From the IMG/VR virus record IMGVR_UViG_3300027586_000007, positions 1 to 64,000 of that record: a stretch of 64,000 nt of DNA. One strand, given 5' to 3'. Source of the stretch: a virus (taxonomy: Duplodnaviria > Caudoviricetes). Below the pieces are notes generated by a model, which did no database searches, was not told the DNA's origin, and worked only from the letters and a program-made list of their open reading frames with translations. A program made the translations under genes and the position numbers. This document shows positions 1,143-12,520 of this stretch, in pieces; position 1 is the first letter of the stretch; each line of letters opens with the position of its first letter.

Positions 1143-3740
1143 ATGTCAACAGTAAGAATTCAAGTAAGAAGAGGTACAGCCTCTGAATGGACCGCAGCAA
1201 ATCCAATATTAGCTGCAGGTGAAATGGGTGTTGAAACAAACACTAATTTATTTAAGTTTGGTAATGGAACAGCTACATGGACAGCCCTAGCATATGCCAA
1301 CAACTCAGATGTAGCAATTGGTGAAATTTCCCAGGATGCTATAAACACAGCCTTAACAATGGGCGCAGGACTAACAAAGACTTATAACGATGGAGCAAAT
1401 ACAATTACTATAACTGTTGATACAGATGTAGTTGCAACTAAAACATTTGCTACTTCAGAAGCAACAACCAAGGCTAGCGCAGCACAAGCAGCCGCAATCG
1501 CAGCAGCAGCAACTGACGCTACAACCAAGGCTAGCGCAGCACAAGCAGCCGCAATCGCAGCAGCAGCAACAGATGCTACTACAAAATCAGCGGCAGCAAG
1601 AGACGCAGCAGAAGATTACACAGATGCTGCAGTAAATACAGTAAGCAATTCTCTTTCAGGATACCTAGAAACAGGAGATAGAGGAACTGCTGGTGGAGTT
1701 GCTTCATTAGATTCAAATACTAAAATTTTACAATCAGAACTTCCTTTGAACTCTCTTACAACTGATATTTCAACAACTGGCGACATATTTGCCAACGACA
1801 TTGTTGTCAGCGGTAACCTTGCGGTTAATGGAACAATGACAACTATTAATACAGAAAACTTTGAAGTTCAAGATACACTTCTTTTAATGGCAAAAGGCAA
1901 TCAGTCTGGAATGTTAGACTTAGGCTTTGTTGTTGGACATAATACTGGAGTATTTAATCACACAGGATTTGTCCGTGACGCTTCAGAAGATAAGTGGAAG
2001 TTGTTTAAGGGCGTTACAGCACAGCCTACAACTACAGTTAACTTTACACAAGGATCATTAGACGCCATAGCAGTTGGAAGACTAGAATCAACAGAATCTG
2101 TTCTTAATAATCCAACATTAACTGGAACAGTAGTTCTTCCAAGCTCATCAATTATAGGTGAAAACATTGCAGTAAATGCTGTAGCATCATCTAAAATTAC
2201 AGATGGAGCTATTACAGAAGCAAAGGTTGCAGCAAATGCAATAACAGAAGGCAAAATAGCAGCTAACTCAGTAACTAATGCTAAGATTGCAAACGGAGCA
2301 ATTACATCAGACAAAATTGCAGCAAACTCAATTGCTCAATCACATTTAGGTGATGACTCAGTTGGAACAAATGAAATTAGTGGACTTGCTGTTACAACAG
2401 CGAAAATAGCCACATCCGCAGTAACCGCAGATAAGATTGCAACAGATGCTGTTACAACAGAAAAGATAGCCACATCTGCAGTAACTGCAGACGAGATTGC
2501 AGGTCTAGCTGTTACTTCAGCAAAGATTGCAGTAGATGCTGTTACAACAGAAAAGATAGCAACATCTGCAGTAACTACAGACGAGATTGCAGTTCTAGCT
2601 GTTACTTCAGCAAAGATTGCTGACGGAGCAGTTCTTGCAGCAAAGATTGCCGATTTAGCAGTAAATGGTACAAAGATTGCAGATGGCGCAGTTGATACAG
2701 CAAAGATTGTAGACGGCGCAATTACATCAGCTAAAATTACAAATGAAACAATTGTAAACGCAGACATTAGCCCTACAGCAGCAATTGCTCAAAGTAAAAT
2801 TGATGGACTAGGAGAATCTTTAACAGCGCTGGCCCCAATTGCATCTCCAACATTTACAGGCACAGTAGTTCTACCAAATACAACATCAATTGGAAATCTT
2901 TCTGCAACAGAACTTGGATACCTAGACGGAATTACATCTTCTGTGCAGACACAAATTGGTACAGCAGCAACAGCACTTTCAAATCACGAATCAGACACAA
3001 CCAATATTCACGGAATCGCAGATACTTCAGTACTTGCAACTGCTACAACAGTAGCAACTGCTAAGTCAGAAGCAATTGCAGCAGCAGCAACTGACGCTAC
3101 AACTAAGGCCAACGCAGCTCAAGCAGCAGCAGAAGCCACAGCAGCAGCAGCACTTTCAGGTGCAATTTCAACAGAGGTTTCAGGTCGTAACTCTGCAATT
3201 GCAACTGCTAAGTCAGAAGCTATTGCAGATGCAACAGCTCAGGTAAATGCAGTAATTGCAGCAGCCCCAGCAGCACTTAATACACTAGATGAACTTGCAG
3301 CAGCACTTGGTGATGACGCCAACTTTGCAGGAACTATAACATCTAGCGTTGCATTAAAAGCACCAATCGCTAGCCCAACATTTACTGGAACAGTAACAGT
3401 TGCAGCAGCAGGAATTGCGTTCTCAGATGGAACACAGACACGAGCTGGAGTTCCCTCTATCACAGAGTTTACTGGGCTTGCAGCTGGCGATGTGCTTCCA
3501 TTAAATTCACAAGATAAATTTGTAGCTTTAACTGGAGCTCAGCAAGTTACTCTTCCTGCAACAGGATATTCAATGGGACAATCAATTGATTTCTGGCAAC
3601 AGACTGGAACTGGCGCATCATTTGCTTCAACAAACGGCGTTGTAGGAACTCCAGGATTAAAGTTCAGAACAACAAATTCAGTTGTAACAGCATTAAAAAT
3701 TTCAAGCGGATGGTTGGTCTTCGGAGACCTTTCAGCGTAA
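1143..3740 (+). CDS. Tail fibre-like protein with Mtd_N-type N-terminal domain and AVTxxKIA repeats
   Basis: N-terminus IQVRRGTASEWTAANPILAAGEMGVETNTNLFKFGNGTATWTALAY matches the major tropism determinant N-terminal motif; 10-aa repeats; APIASPTFTG fibre motifs. Confidence 0.75.
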   Translation: MSTVRIQVRRGTASEWTAANPILAAGEMGVETNTNLFKFGNGTATWTALAYANNSDVAIGEISQDAINTALTMGAGLTKTYNDGANTITITVDTDVVATKTFATSEATTKASAAQAAAIAAAATDATTKASAAQAAAIAAAATDATTKSAAARDAAEDYTDAAVNTVSNSLSGYLETGDRGTAGGVASLDSNTKILQSELPLNSLTTDISTTGDIFANDIVVSGNLAVNGTMTTINTENFEVQDTLLLMAKGNQSGMLDLGFVVGHNTGVFNHTGFVRDASEDKWKLFKGVTAQPTTTVNFTQGSLDAIAVGRLESTESVLNNPTLTGTVVLPSSSIIGENIAVNAVASSKITDGAITEAKVAANAITEGKIAANSVTNAKIANGAITSDKIAANSIAQSHLGDDSVGTNEISGLAVTTAKIATSAVTADKIATDAVTTEKIATSAVTADEIAGLAVTSAKIAVDAVTTEKIATSAVTTDEIAVLAVTSAKIADGAVLAAKIADLAVNGTKIADGAVDTAKIVDGAITSAKITNETIVNADISPTAAIAQSKIDGLGESLTALAPIASPTFTGTVVLPNTTSIGNLSATELGYLDGITSSVQTQIGTAATALSNHESDTTNIHGIADTSVLATATTVATAKSEAIAAAATDATTKANAAQAAAEATAAAALSGAISTEVSGRNSAIATAKSEAIADATAQVNAVIAAAPAALNTLDELAAALGDDANFAGTITSSVALKAPIASPTFTGTVTVAAAGIAFSDGTQTRAGVPSITEFTGLAAGDVLPLNSQDKFVALTGAQQVTLPATGYSMGQSIDFWQQTGTGASFASTNGVVGTPGLKFRTTNSVVTALKISSGWLVFGDLSA
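1464..1570 (+). repeat. 50-bp perfect direct repeat, 57-bp period (TTKASAAQAAAIAAAA)
   Basis: acaaccaaggctagcgcagcacaagcagccgcaatcgcagcagcagcaac at 1464-1513 and 1521-1570. Confidence 0.9.
2180..2740 (+). repeat. Coding 30-nt/10-aa degenerate repeat (A-V/I-T-x-x-K-I-A-x-x)
   Basis: About 18 imperfect units, e.g. AVTTAKIATS AVTADKIATD AVTTEKIATS. Confidence 0.8.
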
Positions 3741-3761: not shown

Positions 3762-5138
3762 ATGTCAAAACAAGTAGGTAGAATGAGCCAGTCATCAAAT
3801 GACTTTTTAGCCCCTTATGCACCAACAATAGGAACAGCTACAAACGTTGGCACAAATCGCCCATATGGCAATGGTGCAGTTACAGTAACGTTTACACCTG
3901 AAGGGCCTTATGCCGCAACATCATTTACAGCATCTGGTTTTTGTAGCGTACACAATACTACTCACACAGCAACAGGATCATCTTCACCATTAACTATAAC
4001 TGGTTTTGGTGTAGGTGCAGTTACAACTATTACAGTAACAGCAACAAATGCAGAAGGAACATCAGCTCCATCTGCAGCATCTAATTCTGTGACAGTCACA
4101 ACAGTACCAGATGCGCCAAGTGCTGCATCTGCAACTGCAGGAGTTAATGCAAATACAGTCCAATGGACAGCTCCAAATAATGGTGGATCAGCAATAACAA
4201 ATTATTATGTAGCTGGAAACGATGGAACATCTGGTAATACAGCTTCTACATCAACATCTATTAATGATGCCGCCAATACTTCTCAGTATTATAACGTATA
4301 TGCAGACAATGCAAACGGAAGATCAGCTGCTTCTAATAACACTAATACCGTTACTACACAAGCACCGTTCTTCCCACCATTCTTCCCACCAGGGTTCTTT
4401 GCCCCACCGTTCTTCCCACCAAGCTTTTTCTCACCACCGTTCTTTCCACCAAGCTTCTTCTCACCACCGTTCTTTCCACCAAGCTTCTTCTCACCACCAT
4501 TCTTCCCACCAAGCTTCTTCTCACCACCATTCTTCCCACCAAGCTTCTTCTCACCACCGTTCTTCCCACCGTTCTTCCCACCGTTCTTCCCACCATTCTT
4601 CCCACCGTTCTTCCCACCATTCTTCCCACCGTTCTTCCCACCAGGGTTCTTTGCCCCACCAAGATTCGGTTGCATAAATGAAGACACTTTAATACTTACA
4701 TCTGAAGGCTATAAGATGGCTAAAGATATAAAAATTGGAGATATGCTAATAAGCTTGTCATTTGATAAATTGCCAAATGAAGGTGAGTACGACCCAGCAA
4801 CTTGGGAAGATACACATCTTGGTAACGCAAAAGTAATTGAGTCAAAGATATTCTCAATACAAGCTACATTGCAGAATGAAACATTTATGATTAACAATGA
4901 CGATACCGCAAGATTCTCTTTGCAAGAAGAAATTCTAGCACTCAGAGGAAATACTTATAAATTTGTTACCCCAGCGGGCATACAAATTGGAGATCAGATA
5001 GTTTACAGATCTGATGAAGAAATTAAGTATCTGGCAGTAGAGTCAGTCGATACAGTAGATGTAAGCTCTATAGTTTATAGATTCTTTACCGACCCAGACG
5101 TATTAGTCCTAGGACAATCGTTTATAATTAGAAACTAA
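3762..5138 (+). CDS. FN3-domain protein with PPFF/PPSFFS repeat and C-terminal Hint (intein/Hedgehog-like) domain
   Basis: Two FN3-like units (TVPDAPSAASAT...VQWTAPNNGGSAITNYYV), a ~100-aa Pro/Phe repeat, then G|CINEDTLILTSEGYKMAKDIKIGD...VYRFFTD...FIIRN-stop (Hint block A and terminal Asn). Confidence 0.8.
   Translation: MSKQVGRMSQSSNDFLAPYAPTIGTATNVGTNRPYGNGAVTVTFTPEGPYAATSFTASGFCSVHNTTHTATGSSSPLTITGFGVGAVTTITVTATNAEGTSAPSAASNSVTVTTVPDAPSAASATAGVNANTVQWTAPNNGGSAITNYYVAGNDGTSGNTASTSTSINDAANTSQYYNVYADNANGRSAASNNTNTVTTQAPFFPPFFPPGFFAPPFFPPSFFSPPFFPPSFFSPPFFPPSFFSPPFFPPSFFSPPFFPPSFFSPPFFPPFFPPFFPPFFPPFFPPFFPPFFPPGFFAPPRFGCINEDTLILTSEGYKMAKDIKIGDMLISLSFDKLPNEGEYDPATWEDTHLGNAKVIESKIFSIQATLQNETFMINNDDTARFSLQEEILALRGNTYKFVTPAGIQIGDQIVYRSDEEIKYLAVESVDTVDVSSIVYRFFTDPDVLVLGQSFIIRN
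4365..4667 (+). repeat. Tandem coding repeat: 5 x 30 bp (PPFFPPSFFS) + 7 x 12 bp (PPFF), flanked by PPGFFA units
   Basis: 30-bp units at 4404-4553 and 12-bp units at 4554-4637, counted from the sequence. Confidence 0.95.
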
Positions 5139-5159
5139 AAATAAGCGTATAATAAGAGA

Positions 5160-5186
5160 GGGAGCAGTCAATCTGCTCCCTTTCTT
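5160..5186 (+). terminator. Rho-independent terminator
   Basis: GGGAGCAG-TCAAT-CTGCTCCC followed by TTTCTT. Confidence 0.85.
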
Positions 5187-5187
5187 A

Positions 5188-5217
5188 TTGACAATATGAA
5201 TTTTTAAATGCTATAAT
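5188..5217 (+). promoter_or_regulatory. Consensus sigma70/sigmaA promoter, leaderless
   Basis: TTGACA-N18-TATAAT with TG extension; ATG 7 nt downstream at 5225. Confidence 0.85.
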
Positions 5218-5224
5218 AAATATT

Positions 5225-5938
5225 ATGGATAACATAAATGATAAATATAAATTTTCTTCAAAAGAAGAGCTTTTCCCAGGCGTTTGGGTATATAGAAACG
5301 CAATTAAAAAAGAATTAAATGTTATTGAAAGACTTAATGAAATAGGCGAGTCAGCAATTAAAGACAACGATTCCAGATTTCTTTGGACCTTTGGATTTGT
5401 TGGCTATAGCGAAAAAAGGCCAGACTACAGAGACTGTGAAGATATTAAGGTTGGCGACATACCAAATCCTAGAACAGAAACAGAAAAACTAGTTTCTAGT
5501 TTGTGGCAAGATCTAAAAAAATCTCAAAATCCAGCAGTAGAAGATTATTGTGCAAAGCATAATGTAAAAATGAATTACTGGGAAGTTATGAACTGTATTC
5601 GTTATGGAGAAGGACAGCATTTTCAAGAACACGCAGACCATGGATTTTCTTACAGTGCCACAGTTTCTCTTGTAGCATATGTTAATGATGAGTACGAAGG
5701 CGGAAATTTATATTTTCCAAAAATAGGTCTTGATATTAAACCACAAGCTGGAGACCTATACATTTTCCCATCAACATATTTGTTTTCTCATAGAGCTATG
5801 CCAGTAAAATCTGGAATGAAATTTTCAATTGTTACAATGTTAGACTATAACGATCATCAGCACAGACAAGAATTTATGGAGATGAGATCAAAGTGGGTAG
5901 AGGAAGACGCTAAGACTGGCAAAAACCCCTATGCATAA
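5225..5938 (+). CDS. 2OG-Fe(II) oxygenase, prolyl-4-hydroxylase-like
   Basis: HAD...YVNDEYEGGNLYFP...HRAMPVKSGMKF: HxD...H facial triad and basic 2OG-binding residue. Confidence 0.85.
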   Translation: MDNINDKYKFSSKEELFPGVWVYRNAIKKELNVIERLNEIGESAIKDNDSRFLWTFGFVGYSEKRPDYRDCEDIKVGDIPNPRTETEKLVSSLWQDLKKSQNPAVEDYCAKHNVKMNYWEVMNCIRYGEGQHFQEHADHGFSYSATVSLVAYVNDEYEGGNLYFPKIGLDIKPQAGDLYIFPSTYLFSHRAMPVKSGMKFSIVTMLDYNDHQHRQEFMEMRSKWVEEDAKTGKNPYA

Positions 5939-6641
5939 CATAAAGGCTTGGGAGATAAGAGATGGTTACGGAATAGTAGAACCGCTTTCTATAAAAAGAA
6001 AATGGATGGATAATACTTGGGAAGCTCACGCATACAAGTGTTTTCCAGTAGGACTAACTAATCAGCTTGGCTGGTCAATATCATTCCCAGAGGATATAAG
6101 CTTTATTTGGGACGGAGTAAGCGATGCTAGCCCAGATCATGTTAAAATTTTATCTGGAGAAAAATATGCATATGCAGGTAGAGCTAACGGGACTATAAGT
6201 TTTAACACTGGGCTTATGTTTAAAACAGAAGATAATTTAAGCATGCTTTCTATGCCAGTCCCAAATTTATTTTTTGATGGCGCTGTACCATTTACAACAT
6301 TAATCAGCACTTCTTTTTTTAGGGGAGAAATCCCAGTGGCCTGGATGATTACTAAGCCAAATGAAATTCTAACAATAGAGGCTGGAACCCCAATAATAGC
6401 CATTCTACCAATTGATCTAGCATCCCTTCAAGGCTCTGAGATAAATTTTGAGTCAATGTCTACTATGCCAGCCAGCCAGTTTGATTCAGACAAATACTCT
6501 GAGATAATTTATGATTTAAATAGATCTGGGGTATGGTCAAATTTTTACAGAGATGCCGTAGACCATTTAAAAAATGCTATAGGCAAGCATCAGGTAAAGG
6601 CATTAAGGCTAGTTGTAAATAAAGAAAATAAAGACAAATAA
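5931..6641 (+). CDS. Hypothetical protein, DUF6065-like
   Basis: AYKCFPVGLTNQLGWSISFPEDISFIWDG resembles my recollection of the DUF6065 N-terminal motif; not searched. Confidence 0.55.
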   Translation: MHNIKAWEIRDGYGIVEPLSIKRKWMDNTWEAHAYKCFPVGLTNQLGWSISFPEDISFIWDGVSDASPDHVKILSGEKYAYAGRANGTISFNTGLMFKTEDNLSMLSMPVPNLFFDGAVPFTTLISTSFFRGEIPVAWMITKPNEILTIEAGTPIIAILPIDLASLQGSEINFESMSTMPASQFDSDKYSEIIYDLNRSGVWSNFYRDAVDHLKNAIGKHQVKALRLVVNKENKDK

Positions 6642-6659
6642 AGATTATAAACCACAATA

Positions 6660-6668
6660 TGGTAAAAT
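6660..6668 (+). promoter_or_regulatory. Extended -10 TGGTAAAAT
   Basis: Intergenic, upstream of the 6693 ORF. Confidence 0.45.
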
Positions 6669-6692
6669 TAATTACCAGGGGAAGAAGATAAA

Positions 6693-7367
6693 ATGAAACC
6701 GCAAAACGAATGGCATGACAACAGACCAGTATCTATTACACCCTCTGGTTTTTTTGGCAACTCCATAGACAACATTGTTGAAATAAGAGACTTTCTTTCA
6801 TTAGAAGAAAGAAAAAGATTGATGGACTTTGCCTTATCTAATAAAATTTGGGATGTAACTGAAACTCACGTTGATGAAGACGGACTAGTCTTGTATGATC
6901 ACAAAATTTGGGAAGATAGAGTATGTACAATGAACTCATTGCGAGCTTCAGATCCCAGCATACTAGAACTTATTTATAGCATGATTGACAGACTAAAGAT
7001 TGAAGTAGATAAATTTTTTGATGTTGACGCAAAAGAAACTGGTCCAGCAATTGTTAAGTGGCCAATAGGTGCAAGACAAGAGCCTCACGCAGATAAAGAA
7101 TTTCATTCTGGTCCAGAAAAGGGAAGACCAAATGATTTCCCGTGGTACGATTTAGCTGGCCTTTTTTATTTTAACGATGATTATGAAGGTGGAGAACTTT
7201 ATTTCCCACAACACGGAATTGAATTTCAGCCAGTAGCAGGAGCAGCATATTTTTTCCCAGGAGACATGAATTATACTCACGGGGTAAGGCCAGTAAAATC
7301 TGGCAACCGATTTACATCTCCATTCTTTTGGACGATATCTAAACATACAGGAGACAGACAACCATGA
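6693..7367 (+). CDS. 2OG-Fe(II) oxygenase, P4H-like
   Basis: HADKE...YFNDDYEGGELYFP...HGVRPVKSGNRF. Confidence 0.87.
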   Translation: MKPQNEWHDNRPVSITPSGFFGNSIDNIVEIRDFLSLEERKRLMDFALSNKIWDVTETHVDEDGLVLYDHKIWEDRVCTMNSLRASDPSILELIYSMIDRLKIEVDKFFDVDAKETGPAIVKWPIGARQEPHADKEFHSGPEKGRPNDFPWYDLAGLFYFNDDYEGGELYFPQHGIEFQPVAGAAYFFPGDMNYTHGVRPVKSGNRFTSPFFWTISKHTGDRQP

Positions 7368-8179
7368 GTAACTTAAATTATATAGAGATTTATCCAAATG
7401 TAGAAGTTTACAGAGATGTTCTTACTGATCCACAAAAAATGTACGAAGTAATGAAAGAGTCTGAAAGAACTTCAGAGGGCAAGCATTTTTTAAAGACATG
7501 GGATCCATGGGCACACTTTGGCACTTATACACAAAAAAAGAATCCAATGGAGATATCTGATGATCAGCAGTCAGATGAAATGTTTATTAAAGAAAAGAAT
7601 TTTGTAGAAGAGGTTGAGGCTGCCTATCATGCAGTTTTAATGGACTACGTAGAAAGACATAACATTAGTTTGCCAGATGGCTGGAGATTTAGCGGATGCT
7701 CATACTCAAAGTATAATCCACAAATTAACACTTTAGATAACAAAATGACAATGCAGTATCATACAGATCATATAACATCTCAAAAAGATATGCCTGGAGA
7801 CAAATTTTTTATAACTTGTACAATGTATATAAATGATGACTACGATGGTGGTGACATTGAATTTTTTGTAGACGGTAAGCTTATTAATCATAAGCCAGTT
7901 TCTGGAGATATTTTAGTTTTCCCATCTACAGAGCCATATTATCACGGAGTTAAAACTATTGAAAATAACGAGAAGTTCTTTGTAAGAAACTTTGTTATGA
8001 CACCATTTGATGGAACAAAAGAATGGTTAAACAACCAAAAGACTTATGGGGCATATAAGTGGGCTCAGATGGAAGCGGAAAGAATTAAGCACGAAGACCC
8101 AAGAAACATGAGATATTTGGAAAATGGTGTACCAACATTTTACGATGATCTTGCTAATATAAAGGGAGAAAATAAATAA
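7364..8179 (+). CDS. 2OG-Fe(II) oxygenase, P4H-like
   Basis: HTDH...YINDDYDGGDIEF...HGVKTIENNEKF; ATGA overlap with the upstream gene. Confidence 0.85.
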   Translation: MSNLNYIEIYPNVEVYRDVLTDPQKMYEVMKESERTSEGKHFLKTWDPWAHFGTYTQKKNPMEISDDQQSDEMFIKEKNFVEEVEAAYHAVLMDYVERHNISLPDGWRFSGCSYSKYNPQINTLDNKMTMQYHTDHITSQKDMPGDKFFITCTMYINDDYDGGDIEFFVDGKLINHKPVSGDILVFPSTEPYYHGVKTIENNEKFFVRNFVMTPFDGTKEWLNNQKTYGAYKWAQMEAERIKHEDPRNMRYLENGVPTFYDDLANIKGENK

Positions 8180-8928
8180 TGGAAAGAGACATGGTTGTAA
8201 CAAGACATAAATCAGATATAGTTGTATATGACAATTTCTTGACTCCAGAAGAGTGCGCTGCAATTATTAAAGTCCTAGACATAAAAATGCAAAAAGAAGA
8301 ATTGAAGTGGATGCCTATTTCTTTCTATGAATCATATTCATCTGGTATGCCAGAAGTCAATGATCCAGATACAATTGCTTGCGGATTGCCAGGAGATTTT
8401 TTTCAAGTACTAAGACAAAGAGTAATTGACGCAACAGCCGATATGGCTGGTAAAAATCCTGAGCAAATGTCACAAATTAGTTGGCACTCTCAGAGATGGG
8501 CACCTGGCGCATTTGCAAATATGCATTCAGATAACACAGATAATGAAGGCAACTCTGGTGCATTTACAAGAAGCAGATACGCAACATTTATTTACTTAAA
8601 TGATGACTTTGAAGATGGAGTTTTAAATTTTAAGCATGGGCTAACGATTGTTCCAAAGACTGGAAGCATGGCCACATTTGCTGGAGGATTTGAAAACACT
8701 CACGAAGTTACAACAGTAAAGAAAGCAATTCGATATACACTCGGATCTTTTTGGGATGACAGAGAAGAATCAGATTACCCACAAGAGGTAAGAGATAAGT
8801 GGGCAGAAGAGCTTGCTGAAGTAAGAGCGTATCAAAAGGTAGAGGCTACCGAGTGGGAAGATATTCGTAACCAAGGACTAAGAATTACTGCATCTGGAGA
8901 AAAATATTCAGCCAAGGAAGTAGAATAA
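8179..8928 (+). CDS. 2OG-Fe(II) oxygenase, P4H-like
   Basis: HSDN...YLNDDFEDGVLNF...HEVTTVKKAIRY. Confidence 0.85.
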   Translation: MERDMVVTRHKSDIVVYDNFLTPEECAAIIKVLDIKMQKEELKWMPISFYESYSSGMPEVNDPDTIACGLPGDFFQVLRQRVIDATADMAGKNPEQMSQISWHSQRWAPGAFANMHSDNTDNEGNSGAFTRSRYATFIYLNDDFEDGVLNFKHGLTIVPKTGSMATFAGGFENTHEVTTVKKAIRYTLGSFWDDREESDYPQEVRDKWAEELAEVRAYQKVEATEWEDIRNQGLRITASGEKYSAKEVE

Positions 8929-9578
8929 TGCAAAACAATATTGAGTTTAAACAATTTATAATGTTTGACCTTCAGGTTCTTGGACCACAAATTTGGTACT
9001 GGGAAAATGCATTAAGTTTTCCAGAAGAGCTAAAAGTATTTATTGACAAAATTGATGAAGAGCCACAGTCTTATTCTAGAATATCTAAATGGGAAAATTG
9101 GACAGCAAGCGATGACAAAGAATTAATTTACGGAAAAACAAAAAATATTAATAAATCTAAGTTAAAAGAATCTACTGGATCAGATATGGTAGATAAAAAA
9201 ACTTTGTATATAGCAAATAGCTTTCTAATGGCATTTGAAATGTGTACCGATAGATACCTAGAAGGACACAAGCTGGATAAAAGTAAATATAATTTAAATT
9301 TAGATAACACCACTATTAAGGCTTGGAATGAAGGACAGTCTATGGGTCCACATTTTGACGGACAAGATGGTAATGCAGATCTAGCATTTTCTTTGGTAGC
9401 ATATATAAACGACGACTACGAAGGCGGAGAAATTAGCTTTCCAAATCACAATGTTACCGTTAAGCCAAAAGCTGGAAGCATGATAATGTTTCCTTCGCAG
9501 GAGCCATATATTCATGAAGTAAAGCCAATTATTTCTGGCACCAGATATATGAGCCCCGCACACGTATATATTAAGTAG
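8928..9578 (+). CDS. 2OG-Fe(II) oxygenase, P4H-like
   Basis: HFDG...YINDDYEGGEISFP...HEVKPIISGTRY. Confidence 0.87.
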   Translation: MQNNIEFKQFIMFDLQVLGPQIWYWENALSFPEELKVFIDKIDEEPQSYSRISKWENWTASDDKELIYGKTKNINKSKLKESTGSDMVDKKTLYIANSFLMAFEMCTDRYLEGHKLDKSKYNLNLDNTTIKAWNEGQSMGPHFDGQDGNADLAFSLVAYINDDYEGGEISFPNHNVTVKPKAGSMIMFPSQEPYIHEVKPIISGTRYMSPAHVYIK

Positions 9579-9583
9579 ATCGG

Positions 9584-9592
9584 TGGTATAAT
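9584..9592 (+). promoter_or_regulatory. Extended -10 TGGTATAAT, leaderless
   Basis: 6 nt before ATG 9599; no RBS. Confidence 0.7.
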
Positions 9593-9598
9593 AAAAAA

Positions 9599-10711
9599 AT
9601 GAGCACAGGAGTAAACGGCTGGAGATTTCCAGACTATACAGACACCCCAGACGTCCCTAGAGACCTTGGAAACCTTGGTGCTGACATTGCAACCTTCATT
9701 GCTGCTAATCCAGGCCCACAGGGCCCTTCAGGCACCTTAGCAATAGGTACAGTAACTACCGTTAGCGCAAGTACTCCAGCAGCAGTTACAAATGTTGGAA
9801 CCTCATCAGCAGCTATATTAAATCTAACTTTGCCTAGAGGAATTGATGGTATTATTGGCGGTCCAGGTCCTTCAAATGTATTGTCTATTGGAACTGTAGC
9901 ACAGGGCGGTACAGCATCAGCAACAATTACTGGAACCTCACCTACACAGACATTAAATTTAGTTTTGCCAGAAGGCCCACAAGGAATACAGGGTCCAGTT
10001 GGCCCGCAGGGTCCTACCACGCTTGCGGTTGGAACGACTACAACTGGTGCAGCTGGAACAAATGCTTCAGTTACAAACACTGGCACAAGTACAGCAGCAG
10101 TTTTTGCATTTACAATTCCAAGAGGAGCAACTGGTGCCACAGGTGCCACTGGACCACAAGGAATTCCTGGATCAAGCGCAACTATAGATCCAGTGCCAAC
10201 AACAATAAGTTTAAACATACCAACCTCAACTGGGTTTGGCGTAAACTCTAACTGGTATCCTTTGGCAAATAACCTTTATAGTTTAGGGCAGCCAACAGAT
10301 ACACCAAATGGAGTTACATCAAACAGATTTTGGAAAACAATATACTCTAACACTGGAACTATCAATACGTCAGATCAAAGATTAAAAACTGAAATTGCAC
10401 CATCTCAGCTAGGCCTTAATTTTATAAATGAATTAAATCCAGTAAGCTATAAGTTTATTGAAGGCGGCAAAGAAATAGTAGACGGAGATATTGTTTCAAT
10501 TCCTGGATCAAGAACCCACTATGGACTTATTGCACAAGAAGTAAAAACAGCTTTAGATGAGTCTGGAGTTGCAGATTTTGCAGGCTGGGTAAAAATGGAT
10601 ATGTTAGAAGAAGACTCTATGCAGGGACTTAGATACGACCAATTTATTGCTCCATTAATTAAAGCAGTACAAGAGCTTACAGCGAGAGTTAAAGCACTAG
10701 AAGAGATCTAA
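9599..10711 (+). CDS. Tail fibre with collagen-like Gly-X-Y segments and C-terminal peptidase S74 chaperone domain
   Basis: GPQGPSG, GPQGIQGPVGPQGP, GATGATGATGPQGIPG; SDQRLKTEI...HYGLIAQEV...LRYDQFIAPLIKAVQEL (S74 motif). Confidence 0.8.
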   Translation: MSTGVNGWRFPDYTDTPDVPRDLGNLGADIATFIAANPGPQGPSGTLAIGTVTTVSASTPAAVTNVGTSSAAILNLTLPRGIDGIIGGPGPSNVLSIGTVAQGGTASATITGTSPTQTLNLVLPEGPQGIQGPVGPQGPTTLAVGTTTTGAAGTNASVTNTGTSTAAVFAFTIPRGATGATGATGPQGIPGSSATIDPVPTTISLNIPTSTGFGVNSNWYPLANNLYSLGQPTDTPNGVTSNRFWKTIYSNTGTINTSDQRLKTEIAPSQLGLNFINELNPVSYKFIEGGKEIVDGDIVSIPGSRTHYGLIAQEVKTALDESGVADFAGWVKMDMLEEDSMQGLRYDQFIAPLIKAVQELTARVKALEEI

Positions 10712-10714
10712 GAC

Positions 10715-12520
10715 ATGTCATACAAATACACTGTCTTAAAAGATAATCCACTTTCTTTTTTCTTATTAGATGAAGTCCGTTCTGGAACTGCTGGAGTATA
10801 CAGCAACCTAACAACACAATATGCCACATATGCTGATTTAAGAGATAATGGCGTTTCGTATGCAGCAATAAGTGGACTTCCAATAAAAGACTATTCTGGT
10901 AATGGTATGGAAGGATATGCAATAAATGCTTCTGCAATGGAAGTCTTGCCTATAATTGGGGCGGGAGTCAGAGGAACAGAAATTAATAATGACATAGACT
11001 TATCACTAAAAGCCCCAGGCATTGCTACATACAAGAACCCAGACAGCCCATTCTCATTTGAAATATGGTTTAGTCCAGACGTATCAGATAGCCAAGAGTA
11101 TTTAATTCTTGGAGACGCAACAAATAAAATAGGCCTATTTTATAAAAATGAAAATGTAATATTTAAATGTACAGAGCAAGAAACAGTATGGTACAAAGTA
11201 AGTAAAAATCAAGTAATGCATATAGTCGGTATATTTTCTAAAGACAAGATGTCTTTGTATATAAACGGATTACTGGTTTCTGAAAAAATTATCACAACAG
11301 CATTTAAATTTACAAATGAATTAATTACTATTAATATTGGTCCAGCAAATACTGGAAAGAGATTTGTAGTAGATTCGGCAGCAATCTATAATTATGAAAT
11401 TGAAGACACAAAGATTTTATCTCACTATTTGGTTGGCTATAAAGAAACTAAATATTCACAGATTGTTTATTCTAAAAACGGAACTTTATTTTCACTAAAC
11501 TCTGTATCCCTAAAGCCATCAGTATCTTACAGATATCCTGGACTTAAATCTTTAGACACTATAGTTTCAGGAGATGCATACTATAATCCAACCTATAAAA
11601 GAATAGAATTTGCCCAGACAGAATTAGTAGAAGAAAAAACTTTTGTATTTGAAGAAAGACTTTATGTGCCAAACCCAGAGAACATTGTTTCTTCTAGAAT
11701 ATCTTACGGGCAAGATGTAGATAACATTTTAATAGAGGTTAAAGTTCCAGGACAAGCCTGGGCGCCATGCAAAAACAATTCTGTCTTGCCATACTATAAC
11801 AAAAATGAAAACTTGTCTGGTCCAATATTAGACATACGAATTACAATGACCACACTCGACTCCTCTTTTGACCTACCCTACTTTGATAAATTAGAAATTG
11901 ATTTATATTCAGATAAAGATTTTTATTCTGATAATGGCGGAGGCAAAGTTTATTCCGACTATGATTATTCACTTGGATATTACAACTATCCAGTAAGAAT
12001 GCAAAATAAATACAATGGCCTATCTATGACTTCAGGACATGGATTCTCTGTAGATCTTCCAATACAGCCAAGAACCATTGAAATGTTTTTTACTCCAAGA
12101 GAAGGAAAGAATGTTTTGTTCTCATCGACTGCGGCCTCTTTTAGCTGGACTAATGCAGGAGCAATAACAAAGAGCGGAATTAGCGCAATATACGTTAATG
12201 GAATAAACAGGACATCTTCTACCAATGTATCCGACTTCTTTTTAAGCGGGGTATCCCATCACGTACTAATAGTCTTAAGCGCAATTGCCACAGGGATTAA
12301 GATGAACCAAAACCAGAGCGGTTCTGAATATGGTGGATCTAATATCTACAGCAATTTAGCATTTTATGAAACCCCATTTACTGCTCTAGAAGCCTTAAAG
12401 AATTATAAGCTATATTGTTCAGAAAATTCATTTACCGTGCAAGACCCAGGCATAACTTTCTCAGAAAGTGCTACTGGCCGAGACAACACAGCCTACTTCA
12501 CAAGATCTTTTGACGTATAG
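10715..12520 (+). CDS. Virion protein with LamG/concanavalin-A-like domains
   Basis: FSFEIWF...MHIVGIF...LYINGLL...DSAAIYNYE motif; YKYTVLKDNPLSFFLLDE N-terminus. Confidence 0.65.
   Translation: MSYKYTVLKDNPLSFFLLDEVRSGTAGVYSNLTTQYATYADLRDNGVSYAAISGLPIKDYSGNGMEGYAINASAMEVLPIIGAGVRGTEINNDIDLSLKAPGIATYKNPDSPFSFEIWFSPDVSDSQEYLILGDATNKIGLFYKNENVIFKCTEQETVWYKVSKNQVMHIVGIFSKDKMSLYINGLLVSEKIITTAFKFTNELITINIGPANTGKRFVVDSAAIYNYEIEDTKILSHYLVGYKETKYSQIVYSKNGTLFSLNSVSLKPSVSYRYPGLKSLDTIVSGDAYYNPTYKRIEFAQTELVEEKTFVFEERLYVPNPENIVSSRISYGQDVDNILIEVKVPGQAWAPCKNNSVLPYYNKNENLSGPILDIRITMTTLDSSFDLPYFDKLEIDLYSDKDFYSDNGGGKVYSDYDYSLGYYNYPVRMQNKYNGLSMTSGHGFSVDLPIQPRTIEMFFTPREGKNVLFSSTAASFSWTNAGAITKSGISAIYVNGINRTSSTNVSDFFLSGVSHHVLIVLSAIATGIKMNQNQSGSEYGGSNIYSNLAFYETPFTALEALKNYKLYCSENSFTVQDPGITFSESATGRDNTAYFTRSFDV

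Follow-up and report, generated by a model that had tools for sequence, protein, structure and literature searches.

A histidine-less, tail-less branch of terminal Hint domains in phage tail-region proteins

Layout of the gene and catalytic positions of its terminal domain

We examined a 64,000-nucleotide stretch of phage DNA (positions 1 to 64,000 of IMG/VR record IMGVR_UViG_3300027586_000007, hereafter the window; the source record is linear, 81.5 kb long, with an estimated completeness of 76%) and, within it, a gene whose 458-amino-acid (aa) product ends in a Hint-fold domain. The protein consists of a short N-terminal peptide, two FN3 domains, an aromatic/proline repeat tract, and the Hint domain, after which the chain stops (Table 1). 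At the junction between tract and domain the open reading frame (ORF) reads ...PPRFG/CINEDTLILTSEG..., and its 3' end encodes ...SFIIRN, with TAA at 5136-5138 followed by AAA TAA. A preliminary description of this DNA, made from its letters, had proposed a 155-aa domain running from a Gly/Cys junction to IIRN-stop with no C-extein, and the ORF sequence agrees with that outline.

TABLE 1 Features of the terminal Hint gene and its downstream flank in the window
Feature	Positions	Strand	Basis
Whole gene, 458 aa: two FN3, aromatic/proline repeat, terminal Hint	3762..5138	+	ORF list, translation
Tandem FN3 domains, ~residues 20-200	3819..4361	+	Pfam, AlphaFold of L003 ortholog, Foldseek
PPFF/PPSFFS repeat tract, ~100 aa, ending PPRFG; N-side flank of Hint	4363..4670	+	Tandem Repeats Finder
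Hint-fold domain, 155 aa, Cys304 to Asn458	4671..5135	+	Homology, AlphaFold, Foldseek, VIA
Cys304 (Hint residue 1), presumed nucleophile; scissile bond Gly303/Cys304	4671..4673	+	Family alignment
Block B S386-L-Q-E389, replacing the usual TxxH	4917..4928	+	Family alignment
Arg457-Asn458-TAA: Arg for penultimate His, terminal Asn, stop at +1	5130..5138	+	Sequence
GC-rich hairpin with T-run, then sigma-70-like consensus promoter	5159..5217	+	Sequence

The N-terminal two-thirds of the protein were characterized with the help of the ortholog in locus L003, which is 94% identical to the window protein overall and 100% identical in the Hint domain, where the two genes differ by 1 nucleotide in 465. 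Pfam matched fn3 at residues 118-196 (E = 7e-4, below the cut-off), the full-length AlphaFold model of the ortholog contained two beta-sandwich domains with pLDDT of 90-95, and Foldseek matched them to tandem FN3 pairs at E values of 1e-9 to 1e-7. The PPFF/PPSFFS tract, for which Tandem Repeats Finder reported periods of 12 and 30, was modelled as disordered in the same ortholog (pLDDT below 50). Its length changes fast between near-identical phages, from ~100 aa in the window to ~88 aa in locus L004 and ~17 aa in L003.

Catalytic positions were assigned from a MAFFT alignment of 119 family domains together with profile alignments to solved inteins and BILs (Table 2). The window copy keeps Cys1, Thr6, Asn75, Ser83, and the terminal Asn, and its block A reads C-I-x-x-D-T; the Cys at residue 1 is unchanging across 22 syntenic orthologs. 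The alignment upheld the three substitutions listed in the preliminary description (SLQEE for the block B TxxH, YRF for the block F Asp, and Arg as the penultimate residue) and added another, Val447 at the block F His position.

TABLE 2 Residues at the catalytic positions of the Hint domain in the family and in the window copy
Hint residue	Family	Window copy
1	Cys in 74 of 75 covering	Cys304
83 (block B Thr)	Ser 97, Thr 22; Ser/Thr never lost	Ser386
86 (block B His)	Gln 45, His 40, Glu 32	Glu389
137 (block F Asp)	Variable	Arg440, within Y-R-F
144 (block F His position)	Asp in 88% of canonical (His-Asn-ending) members	Val447
154 (penultimate)	His 82, Tyr 17, Arg 4	Arg457
155 (terminal)	Asn in 99 of 114 covering	Asn458

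The Hint fold and the wider terminal-Hint family

Residues 304-458 are a genuine Hint-fold domain, a conclusion that rests on the family profile and the predicted fold. The Hint fold is an all-beta horseshoe whose N- and C-termini come together at the active site. Searched as a single sequence, the 155-aa domain retrieved nothing from Pfam even at E ≤ 1, including PF14890 (Intein_splicing), PF07591 (PT-HINT), and PF13884, and nothing usable from PHROGs or the PDB; the only single-sequence signals came from block A, where 28 residues matched phrog_36001 and a terminase family. The ESM Atlas held no meaningful neighbour of the domain (best score, 0.76), tblastn of the domain alone against GenBank phages returned nothing, and a word-index protein search yielded a single near-identical protein only. 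With the whole protein as the query, tblastn against GenBank phages found only Phage NCTB, at 28% identity, in a tail protein annotated with an intein domain.

A profile built from 65 relatives matched the BIL domain of C. thermocellum (2lwy) at E = 3e-9, the Pho RadA intein at E = 5e-8, and several other inteins at E values of 5e-8 to 1e-3. Among these 65 relatives, 30 had Pfam matches of their own to PF14890, seven to PF07591, seven to PF13403, and three to PF01079. The AlphaFold model of the Hint domain, computed with the family alignment, reached a pLDDT of 95.9 and a pTM of 0.87, and Foldseek assigned a probability of 1.0 to matches with Hedgehog HhC, BILs, and inteins. Hedgehog HhC (6tyy/1at0) ranked at the top (TM 0.71/0.75, E = 5e-6), followed by the C. 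thermocellum BIL, the Tetrahymena BUBL BIL2, and mini-inteins. VIA-align gave Z scores of 13-16.2 over 83 chains, with ~130 residues aligned at a root-mean-square deviation of ~2.1 Å; the scores to inteins, BIL domains, and Hedgehog HhC were 15.7-16.2. Because these alignments span model residues 1 to 155, the domain boundaries are exactly those of a Hint module. Profile and structure searches, which the preliminary description had named as the check on its fold assignment, thus both recovered the Hint fold. The best matches among predicted viral structures (TM 0.91-0.95) were FN3, PASTA, or 'Hint domain' proteins of uncultured Caudovirales, and three Phage NCTB proteins were also matched.

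Phage NCTB (L001, LT598654), a jumbo phage, carries three Hint-containing genes in its tail-fibre region (4963-12222). One encodes a tail protein (506 aa) that contains a Gly-run, Cys1, and TEQH and closes with C-I-H-N-A; another, for an 'intein domain protein' of 153 aa, is free-standing; and the third codes for a 'large intein domain protein' of 1304 aa.

Searching 1.84 billion representatives exhaustively with phmmer, we recovered 121 relatives at E ≤ 1e-3, of which 46 also passed E ≤ 1e-10, so that the family comprises at least 121 cluster representatives. Nearly all of these are proteins of 150-1061 residues whose Hint domain reaches the C-terminus or stops a few residues short of it. Most members continue for 1-5 residues after the terminal Asn, typically as K or xK, and only 6 of ~113 have no residue there at all. 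Since these tails are so short and the +1 residue is rarely Cys, Ser, or Thr, class-1 splicing is excluded for the whole family. Most members combine Cys1, (S/T)xx(H/Q/E), His-Asn, and a short Lys-containing tail, and on these sequence features the family as a whole looks like A-type BIL domains and not like inteins.

The N-terminal parts differ across the family and include FN3, PASTA, and PDZ domains. Over the 62 members whose upstream sequence is long enough, the 30 residues before Cys1 were 27% aromatic and 26% Pro, compared with 11% and 8% in the rest of the protein, and in most of these members an aromatic/proline tract precedes Cys1, with repeat units such as FGFSP, FGFTP, YSFTP, PYFP, and PPFF. 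This composition identifies the aromatic/proline repeat plus the terminal Hint as the constant module. We found no paper on BIL or Hint domains that stand C-terminal behind aromatic/proline repeats in phage tail-region proteins; papers on phiCbK, PaBG, jumbo phages, and actinophage inteins were considered and set aside, as they concern ordinary inteins and do not describe this layout. In a separate subfamily (P0004, P0006, P0018, P0022, P0028, P0029, and P0033) His-Asn is followed by a longer conserved tail, x-K-x-x-F-Q-G-P-T-x-x-D, of 13-19 residues, a pattern that suggests a C-peptide, released or re-ligated, with a function of its own.

Among known systems, A-type BIL domains (2lwy; Tetrahymena BUBL BIL2, 6y75/6tmm) share with the family the Hint fold (Z = 15.8-15.9), the best profile match (2lwy), Cys1, the lack of a Cys, Ser, or Thr at +1, and their occurrence in variable, non-essential proteins; canonical family members also end in His-Asn, and the expected chemistry in both is self-cleavage rather than splicing. 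The family differs from them in being strictly C-terminal behind aromatic/proline repeats in phage tail-region proteins, and its canonical members carry a conserved Lys at +1 or +2. Canonical relatives at the window's own locus have all the A-type BIL sequence features, whereas in the window copy, which keeps Cys1 and Asn, Glu stands at the block B His position, Arg takes the place of the penultimate His, and there is no C-flank. On its sequence we file the window domain as a derived relative of the BIL-A-like family and not as a typical member.

In Hedgehog HhC (1at0/6tyy; Z = 15.8), too, the Hint domain is terminal and works solely at the Cys junction on its N-side, as is predicted for the window domain. 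HhC activates the incoming nucleophile with a conserved Asp/His general base (D46). The window domain, ~15% identical to HhC, has no sterol-recognition region, no TxxH, and no sign of an adduct. Class 1 mini-inteins (Mtu RecA, Ssp DnaB, Pho RadA) have the same fold and boundaries, the same block A C-I-x-x-D-T, and the terminal Asn; the window domain, however, is not inserted in a host protein, has neither a C-extein nor a +1 nucleophile, and lacks the block B His, the block F Asp and His, and the penultimate His, so it cannot splice. Peptidase_S74 (PF13884), found in phage fibres and endosialidases, is also a C-terminal tail-region module expected to remove itself. Its fold and chemistry are unrelated to those of Hint, S74 cleavage being of the Ser-Lys type in a trimeric helical domain, and the likeness is one of role and not of homology.

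A histidine-less clade and its syntenic relatives

In a maximum likelihood tree, the window domain grouped with those of L003, L004, and P0003 (support, 100/99). Sister to this group (98/93) were members that end in Tyr-Asn, Asn-Asn, or Tyr-Gly and continue into A-Y-P-type tails, and the canonical His-Asn forms made up a separate 22-row clade (97/96). Across 18 representatives of the histidine-less clade, Glu86, Ser83, and Asn75 were each present in 100%, position 144 was Gly in 83%, and position 154 was Tyr in 67%. Cys1 was found in eight of the nine that reach the N-end, the exception being a truncated ORF, and the Tyr-Asn subclade had a Cys start in 11 of 11 viral loci covering the N-end. 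Members of the clade share only ~30-40% identity. Thr6 is also kept in the clade, as is the terminal Asn in most members. The three His positions have thus changed together and stayed fixed since, with the N-junction residues kept.

The window lineage has in addition lost its tail. The codons at the end of the domain are AAC TAA AAA TAA in the window and AAC TAG AAA TAA in L004, and canonical orthologs read AAC CTA AAG ATG TAC TAA (N-L-K-M-Y-stop) at the equivalent place. An Arg-Asn-stop ending also occurs in P0003, a 70% identical relative. This stop-codon comparison and the P0003 ending indicate that a stop at +1 took away the tail in this lineage and that the truncated state has lasted. Between the window and L004, the Hint domain has a synonymous divergence (dS) of 0.43, a nonsynonymous divergence (dN) of 0.044, and a dN/dS ratio of 0.10, which indicates that it is not decaying; the ratio was 0.09-0.23 for canonical ortholog pairs and 0.31-0.39 within the Tyr-Asn subgroup. 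For the same two proteins, identity is 92% in the Hint domain, 74% in the second FN3 domain, and 36% in residues 1-113.

More than 40 IMG/VR loci share a common gene order: a 120-aa ORF, a large fibre of the 865-aa type, the Hint gene, an oxygenase cluster, an S74 fibre, a 601-aa protein, and the portal. The FN3-FN3-(PPxFFx)n layout of the gene is retained in related loci, and at the equivalent locus over 35 related phages have canonical His-Asn-(x)Lys forms, with CID(E/Q)DT..., RFSLE(Q/H), and ...VVHN-xK-x(x). In the window, the upstream neighbour of the Hint gene is an 865-aa tail fibre with an Mtd_N head (1143-3740), and the downstream order is 2-oxoglutarate (2OG)-Fe(II) oxygenase-like genes, a collagen-like fibre ending in S74, portal, protease, and major capsid protein. 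The capsid protein shares 56% identity with its counterparts in Streptomyces BE-cluster siphophages and the G+C content of the window is only 32-44%, which makes a low-GC actinobacterial host plausible.

In most canonical relatives, two additional genes separate the Hint gene from the first oxygenase gene (L007, 8453-9728; L020, 8439-9711), one Sulfotransfer_2-like (E = 8e-5) and one for an Asp/Asn beta-hydroxylase (E = 5e-11). Both are absent from the window (5139-5224), L003, and L004, where the hairpin and consensus promoter occupy their position, and also from L057. A functional link between the extra genes and the canonical His-Asn-xK tail is possible. The promoter in the window is a perfect TTGACA-18-TATAAT with an extended -10 TG and lies directly upstream of the first oxygenase gene. 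The oxygenase region (5225-9578) encodes five 2OG-Fe(II) oxygenase-like paralogues and a DUF6065 protein, with synteny kept in more than 40 related phages, and these oxygenase-like enzymes could modify the Pro/Phe tract.

The Hint gene is a recombinational mosaic, with exchange perhaps occurring through the repeat. The FN3-1 variant of the window, marked by the insert S-G-F-C-S-V-H-N-T-T-H-T (3930-3970), is also found in L024, whose Hint domain belongs to the canonical clade, and L003, with a Hint domain identical to the window's, carries the FN3-1 variant of L020. Since the window variant recurs beside a Hint domain of a different clade, the low FN3 identity is partly due to recombination. 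In another lineage (L045, L047, and L052), two terminal-Hint proteins are encoded ~7 kb apart, one of the histidine-less Tyr-Asn type and the other behind the 120-aa ORF and large fibre.

In one relative, the Hint domain appears to have been exchanged for an unrelated module. The syntenic gene of L057 (IMGVR_UViG_3300032665_000284, 7935-9375) encodes three FN3 domains and a PPxFF tract and no Hint, and tblastn found no Hint remnant in this locus. Directly after the last PPSF the sequence continues as S-S-I-K-V-K-R-D-I, which matches the start of S74 in the window fibre, S-D-Q-R-L-K-T-E-I. The S74 frame is then broken by a TAG stop and a frame change, and the next ORF (95 aa) gives a Peptidase_S74 (PF13884) match with E = 3.6e-9 that scores 37 bits, above the cut-off of 22, and covers positions 15-51 of the 58 in the profile. 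Possible explanations for the split S74 are a pseudogene, a sequencing error, and an arrangement in two pieces. Because the S74 of L057 starts where the Hint Cys sits elsewhere, two unrelated C-terminal modules, self-cleaving S74 and a presumably self-cleaving Hint, use one and the same junction. The window itself encodes a 370-aa fibre (9599-10711) with Gly-X-Y collagen-like stretches and a Peptidase_S74 self-cleaving chaperone end (E = 9e-14), so this phage uses both kinds of terminal module, S74 on that fibre and Hint on ORF 3762-5138.

A proposed self-removing cap and the alternatives to it

We favour, at about an even chance, a reading in which the domain would be a single-turnover, self-removing C-terminal cap that cleaves at Gly303/Cys304 with no partner. 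Splicing is excluded, as there is no C-extein, and Asn cyclisation would be pointless, as nothing follows the terminal Asn that it could release. Chemistry at the N-junction is favoured because the C-junction residues (the block F His position and the penultimate His) have changed and the N-junction residues have been kept. The domain would thus still perform a single N-to-S acyl shift at Gly303/Cys304, and the thioester would be resolved mainly by water or a small thiol. Hint would be released, leaving FN3-FN3-(PPFF)n as the mature protein, and the cap may help the sticky aromatic/proline tract to fold or to stay soluble until it is removed, much like an S74 chaperone. The invariant Glu might take over the hydrogen bond that His makes to the scissile amide, or it might serve as the base that activates water.

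Several observations support such a cap. Cys1, Ser83, and the block B Glu are kept throughout the histidine-less clade, and a dead site should drift at the block B position and not fix Glu. Purifying selection on the domain is as strong as in canonical relatives, and it is canonical His-Asn-(x)Lys forms that fill the same locus in the more than 35 phages noted above. The presence of an S74 autoproteolytic domain at the same junction in one relative points in the same direction, and we regard the L057 swap as suggestive and not decisive. Friedel et al. (2019, PMC6333167) showed that bulky -1 residues can make up for a missing block B His in the N-S acyl shift, and A-type BIL domains self-cleave without a +1 nucleophile (Amitai 2003, Dassa 2004, summarised in PMC7765530).

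Other points weigh against this reading. The support for cleavage is comparative throughout, and the window lineage is without any conserved His in its Hint domain. Steric compensation of the Friedel type is not obviously applicable, as Gly precedes the scissile bond here; of the Glu-type members, 59% have an aromatic residue at -1, and an aromatic -1 residue was considered as an explanation for the loss of the block B His in the window copy and rejected on the same ground. Hint is the most conserved part of the protein, which would also fit a retained docking module, and virion membership of the 458-aa protein is putative. S74 works as a trimer and Hint does not, so the analogy between them would be functional only. 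The S74 of L057, moreover, is known from one locus, in which its frame is broken as described above, and no longer protein with this S74 piece at its end turned up when one was sought.

The preliminary description had offered two readings, covalent coupling of the FN3-PPFF fragment to a partner and a dead Hint domain; the non-canonical Hint domain it described stands, and both readings are possible, although neither is the best supported. The latter is the stronger rival, if clearly less probable than the cap: a catalytically dead Hint fold would be retained for structure or docking, to fasten the variable FN3 part to the tail or a partner protein, with Cys1 and the other conserved residues serving structure only. 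Replacement of all three His positions and of the block F Asp position, together with a Gly at -1, would suit a dead site, and the gradient between the window and L004, from 92% in Hint to 36% and 74% in FN3, has the pattern of a virion-proximal or partner-binding end, although the low FN3 identity is in part a product of recombination. A dN/dS ratio within the canonical range fits any functional domain, catalytic or not. Against a dead module, Cys1, Ser83, and the block B Glu are held in a clade of ~30-40% identity, and L057, which dispenses with Hint and has S74 instead, argues against an indispensable anchor.

Coupling seems to us doubtful. As in Hedgehog, the Cys304 thioester would be attacked by an amine or hydroxyl of a virion protein, wall polymer, or lipid, so that the FN3-PPFF fragment would become covalently attached through its C-terminus; a His-free site of Cys1, Ser83, and the invariant Glu would then join the FN3-(PPFF)n C-terminus to a nucleophile of the virion or host envelope, which we likewise consider improbable. 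Retention of the N-junction nucleophile set would suit such a transferase, as would the combination of varying N-terminal parts (FN3, PASTA, PDZ) with a constant linker-plus-Hint, which is what a common attachment device would show, and Hedgehog HhC is among the top structural matches. The likeness to inteins and BILs is equal to that to HhC, however, with Z scores within 0.5. The chain stops at the last Hint residue, leaving no acceptor-recognition region, no candidate acceptor gene co-varies with the Hint domain, and L057 ends in an ordinary hydrolytic S74 module; nothing points to the lipid, wall, or virion partner that had been proposed. Least probable by far is a decaying remnant of a canonical terminal Hint, cut by a nonsense mutation. 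The stop at +1 of the ancestral xK tail (N-stop-K-stop against N-L-K-M-Y-stop) and the several changed catalytic positions are what such a remnant would have, but a dN/dS of 0.10 at a dS of 0.43 contradicts decay, the Arg-Asn-stop ending is kept in a 70% identical relative, the changed residues are conserved over the 18-representative clade, and the domain is modelled at a pLDDT of 95.9.

Within the intein/Hint superfamily, the block B histidine is usually regarded as essential and as more conserved than any other residue. New here is a histidine-less branch, tail-less in the window lineage, of the terminal Hint domains read above as caps: a natural clade that has fixed Glu at block B, with the other two His positions replaced, the nucleophile kept, and strong purifying selection. 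Should the clade prove active, it would offer a natural system in which to test how a Hint fold drives the N-S acyl shift without histidine, and it might yield self-cleaving tags that respond differently to pH or thiols. Should it prove inactive, it would clearly illustrate the recruitment of a Hint fold to a non-catalytic role. Were the transfer reading true, it would represent a phage counterpart of Hedgehog cholesteroylation with other catalytic residues. The family to which this branch belongs has a fixed layout of a variable binding domain, an aromatic/proline repeat, a terminal Hint, and then Lys, and is common in freshwater phages. The exchange of Hint and S74 at one junction suggests a general role for removable caps in the assembly of phage tail proteins.

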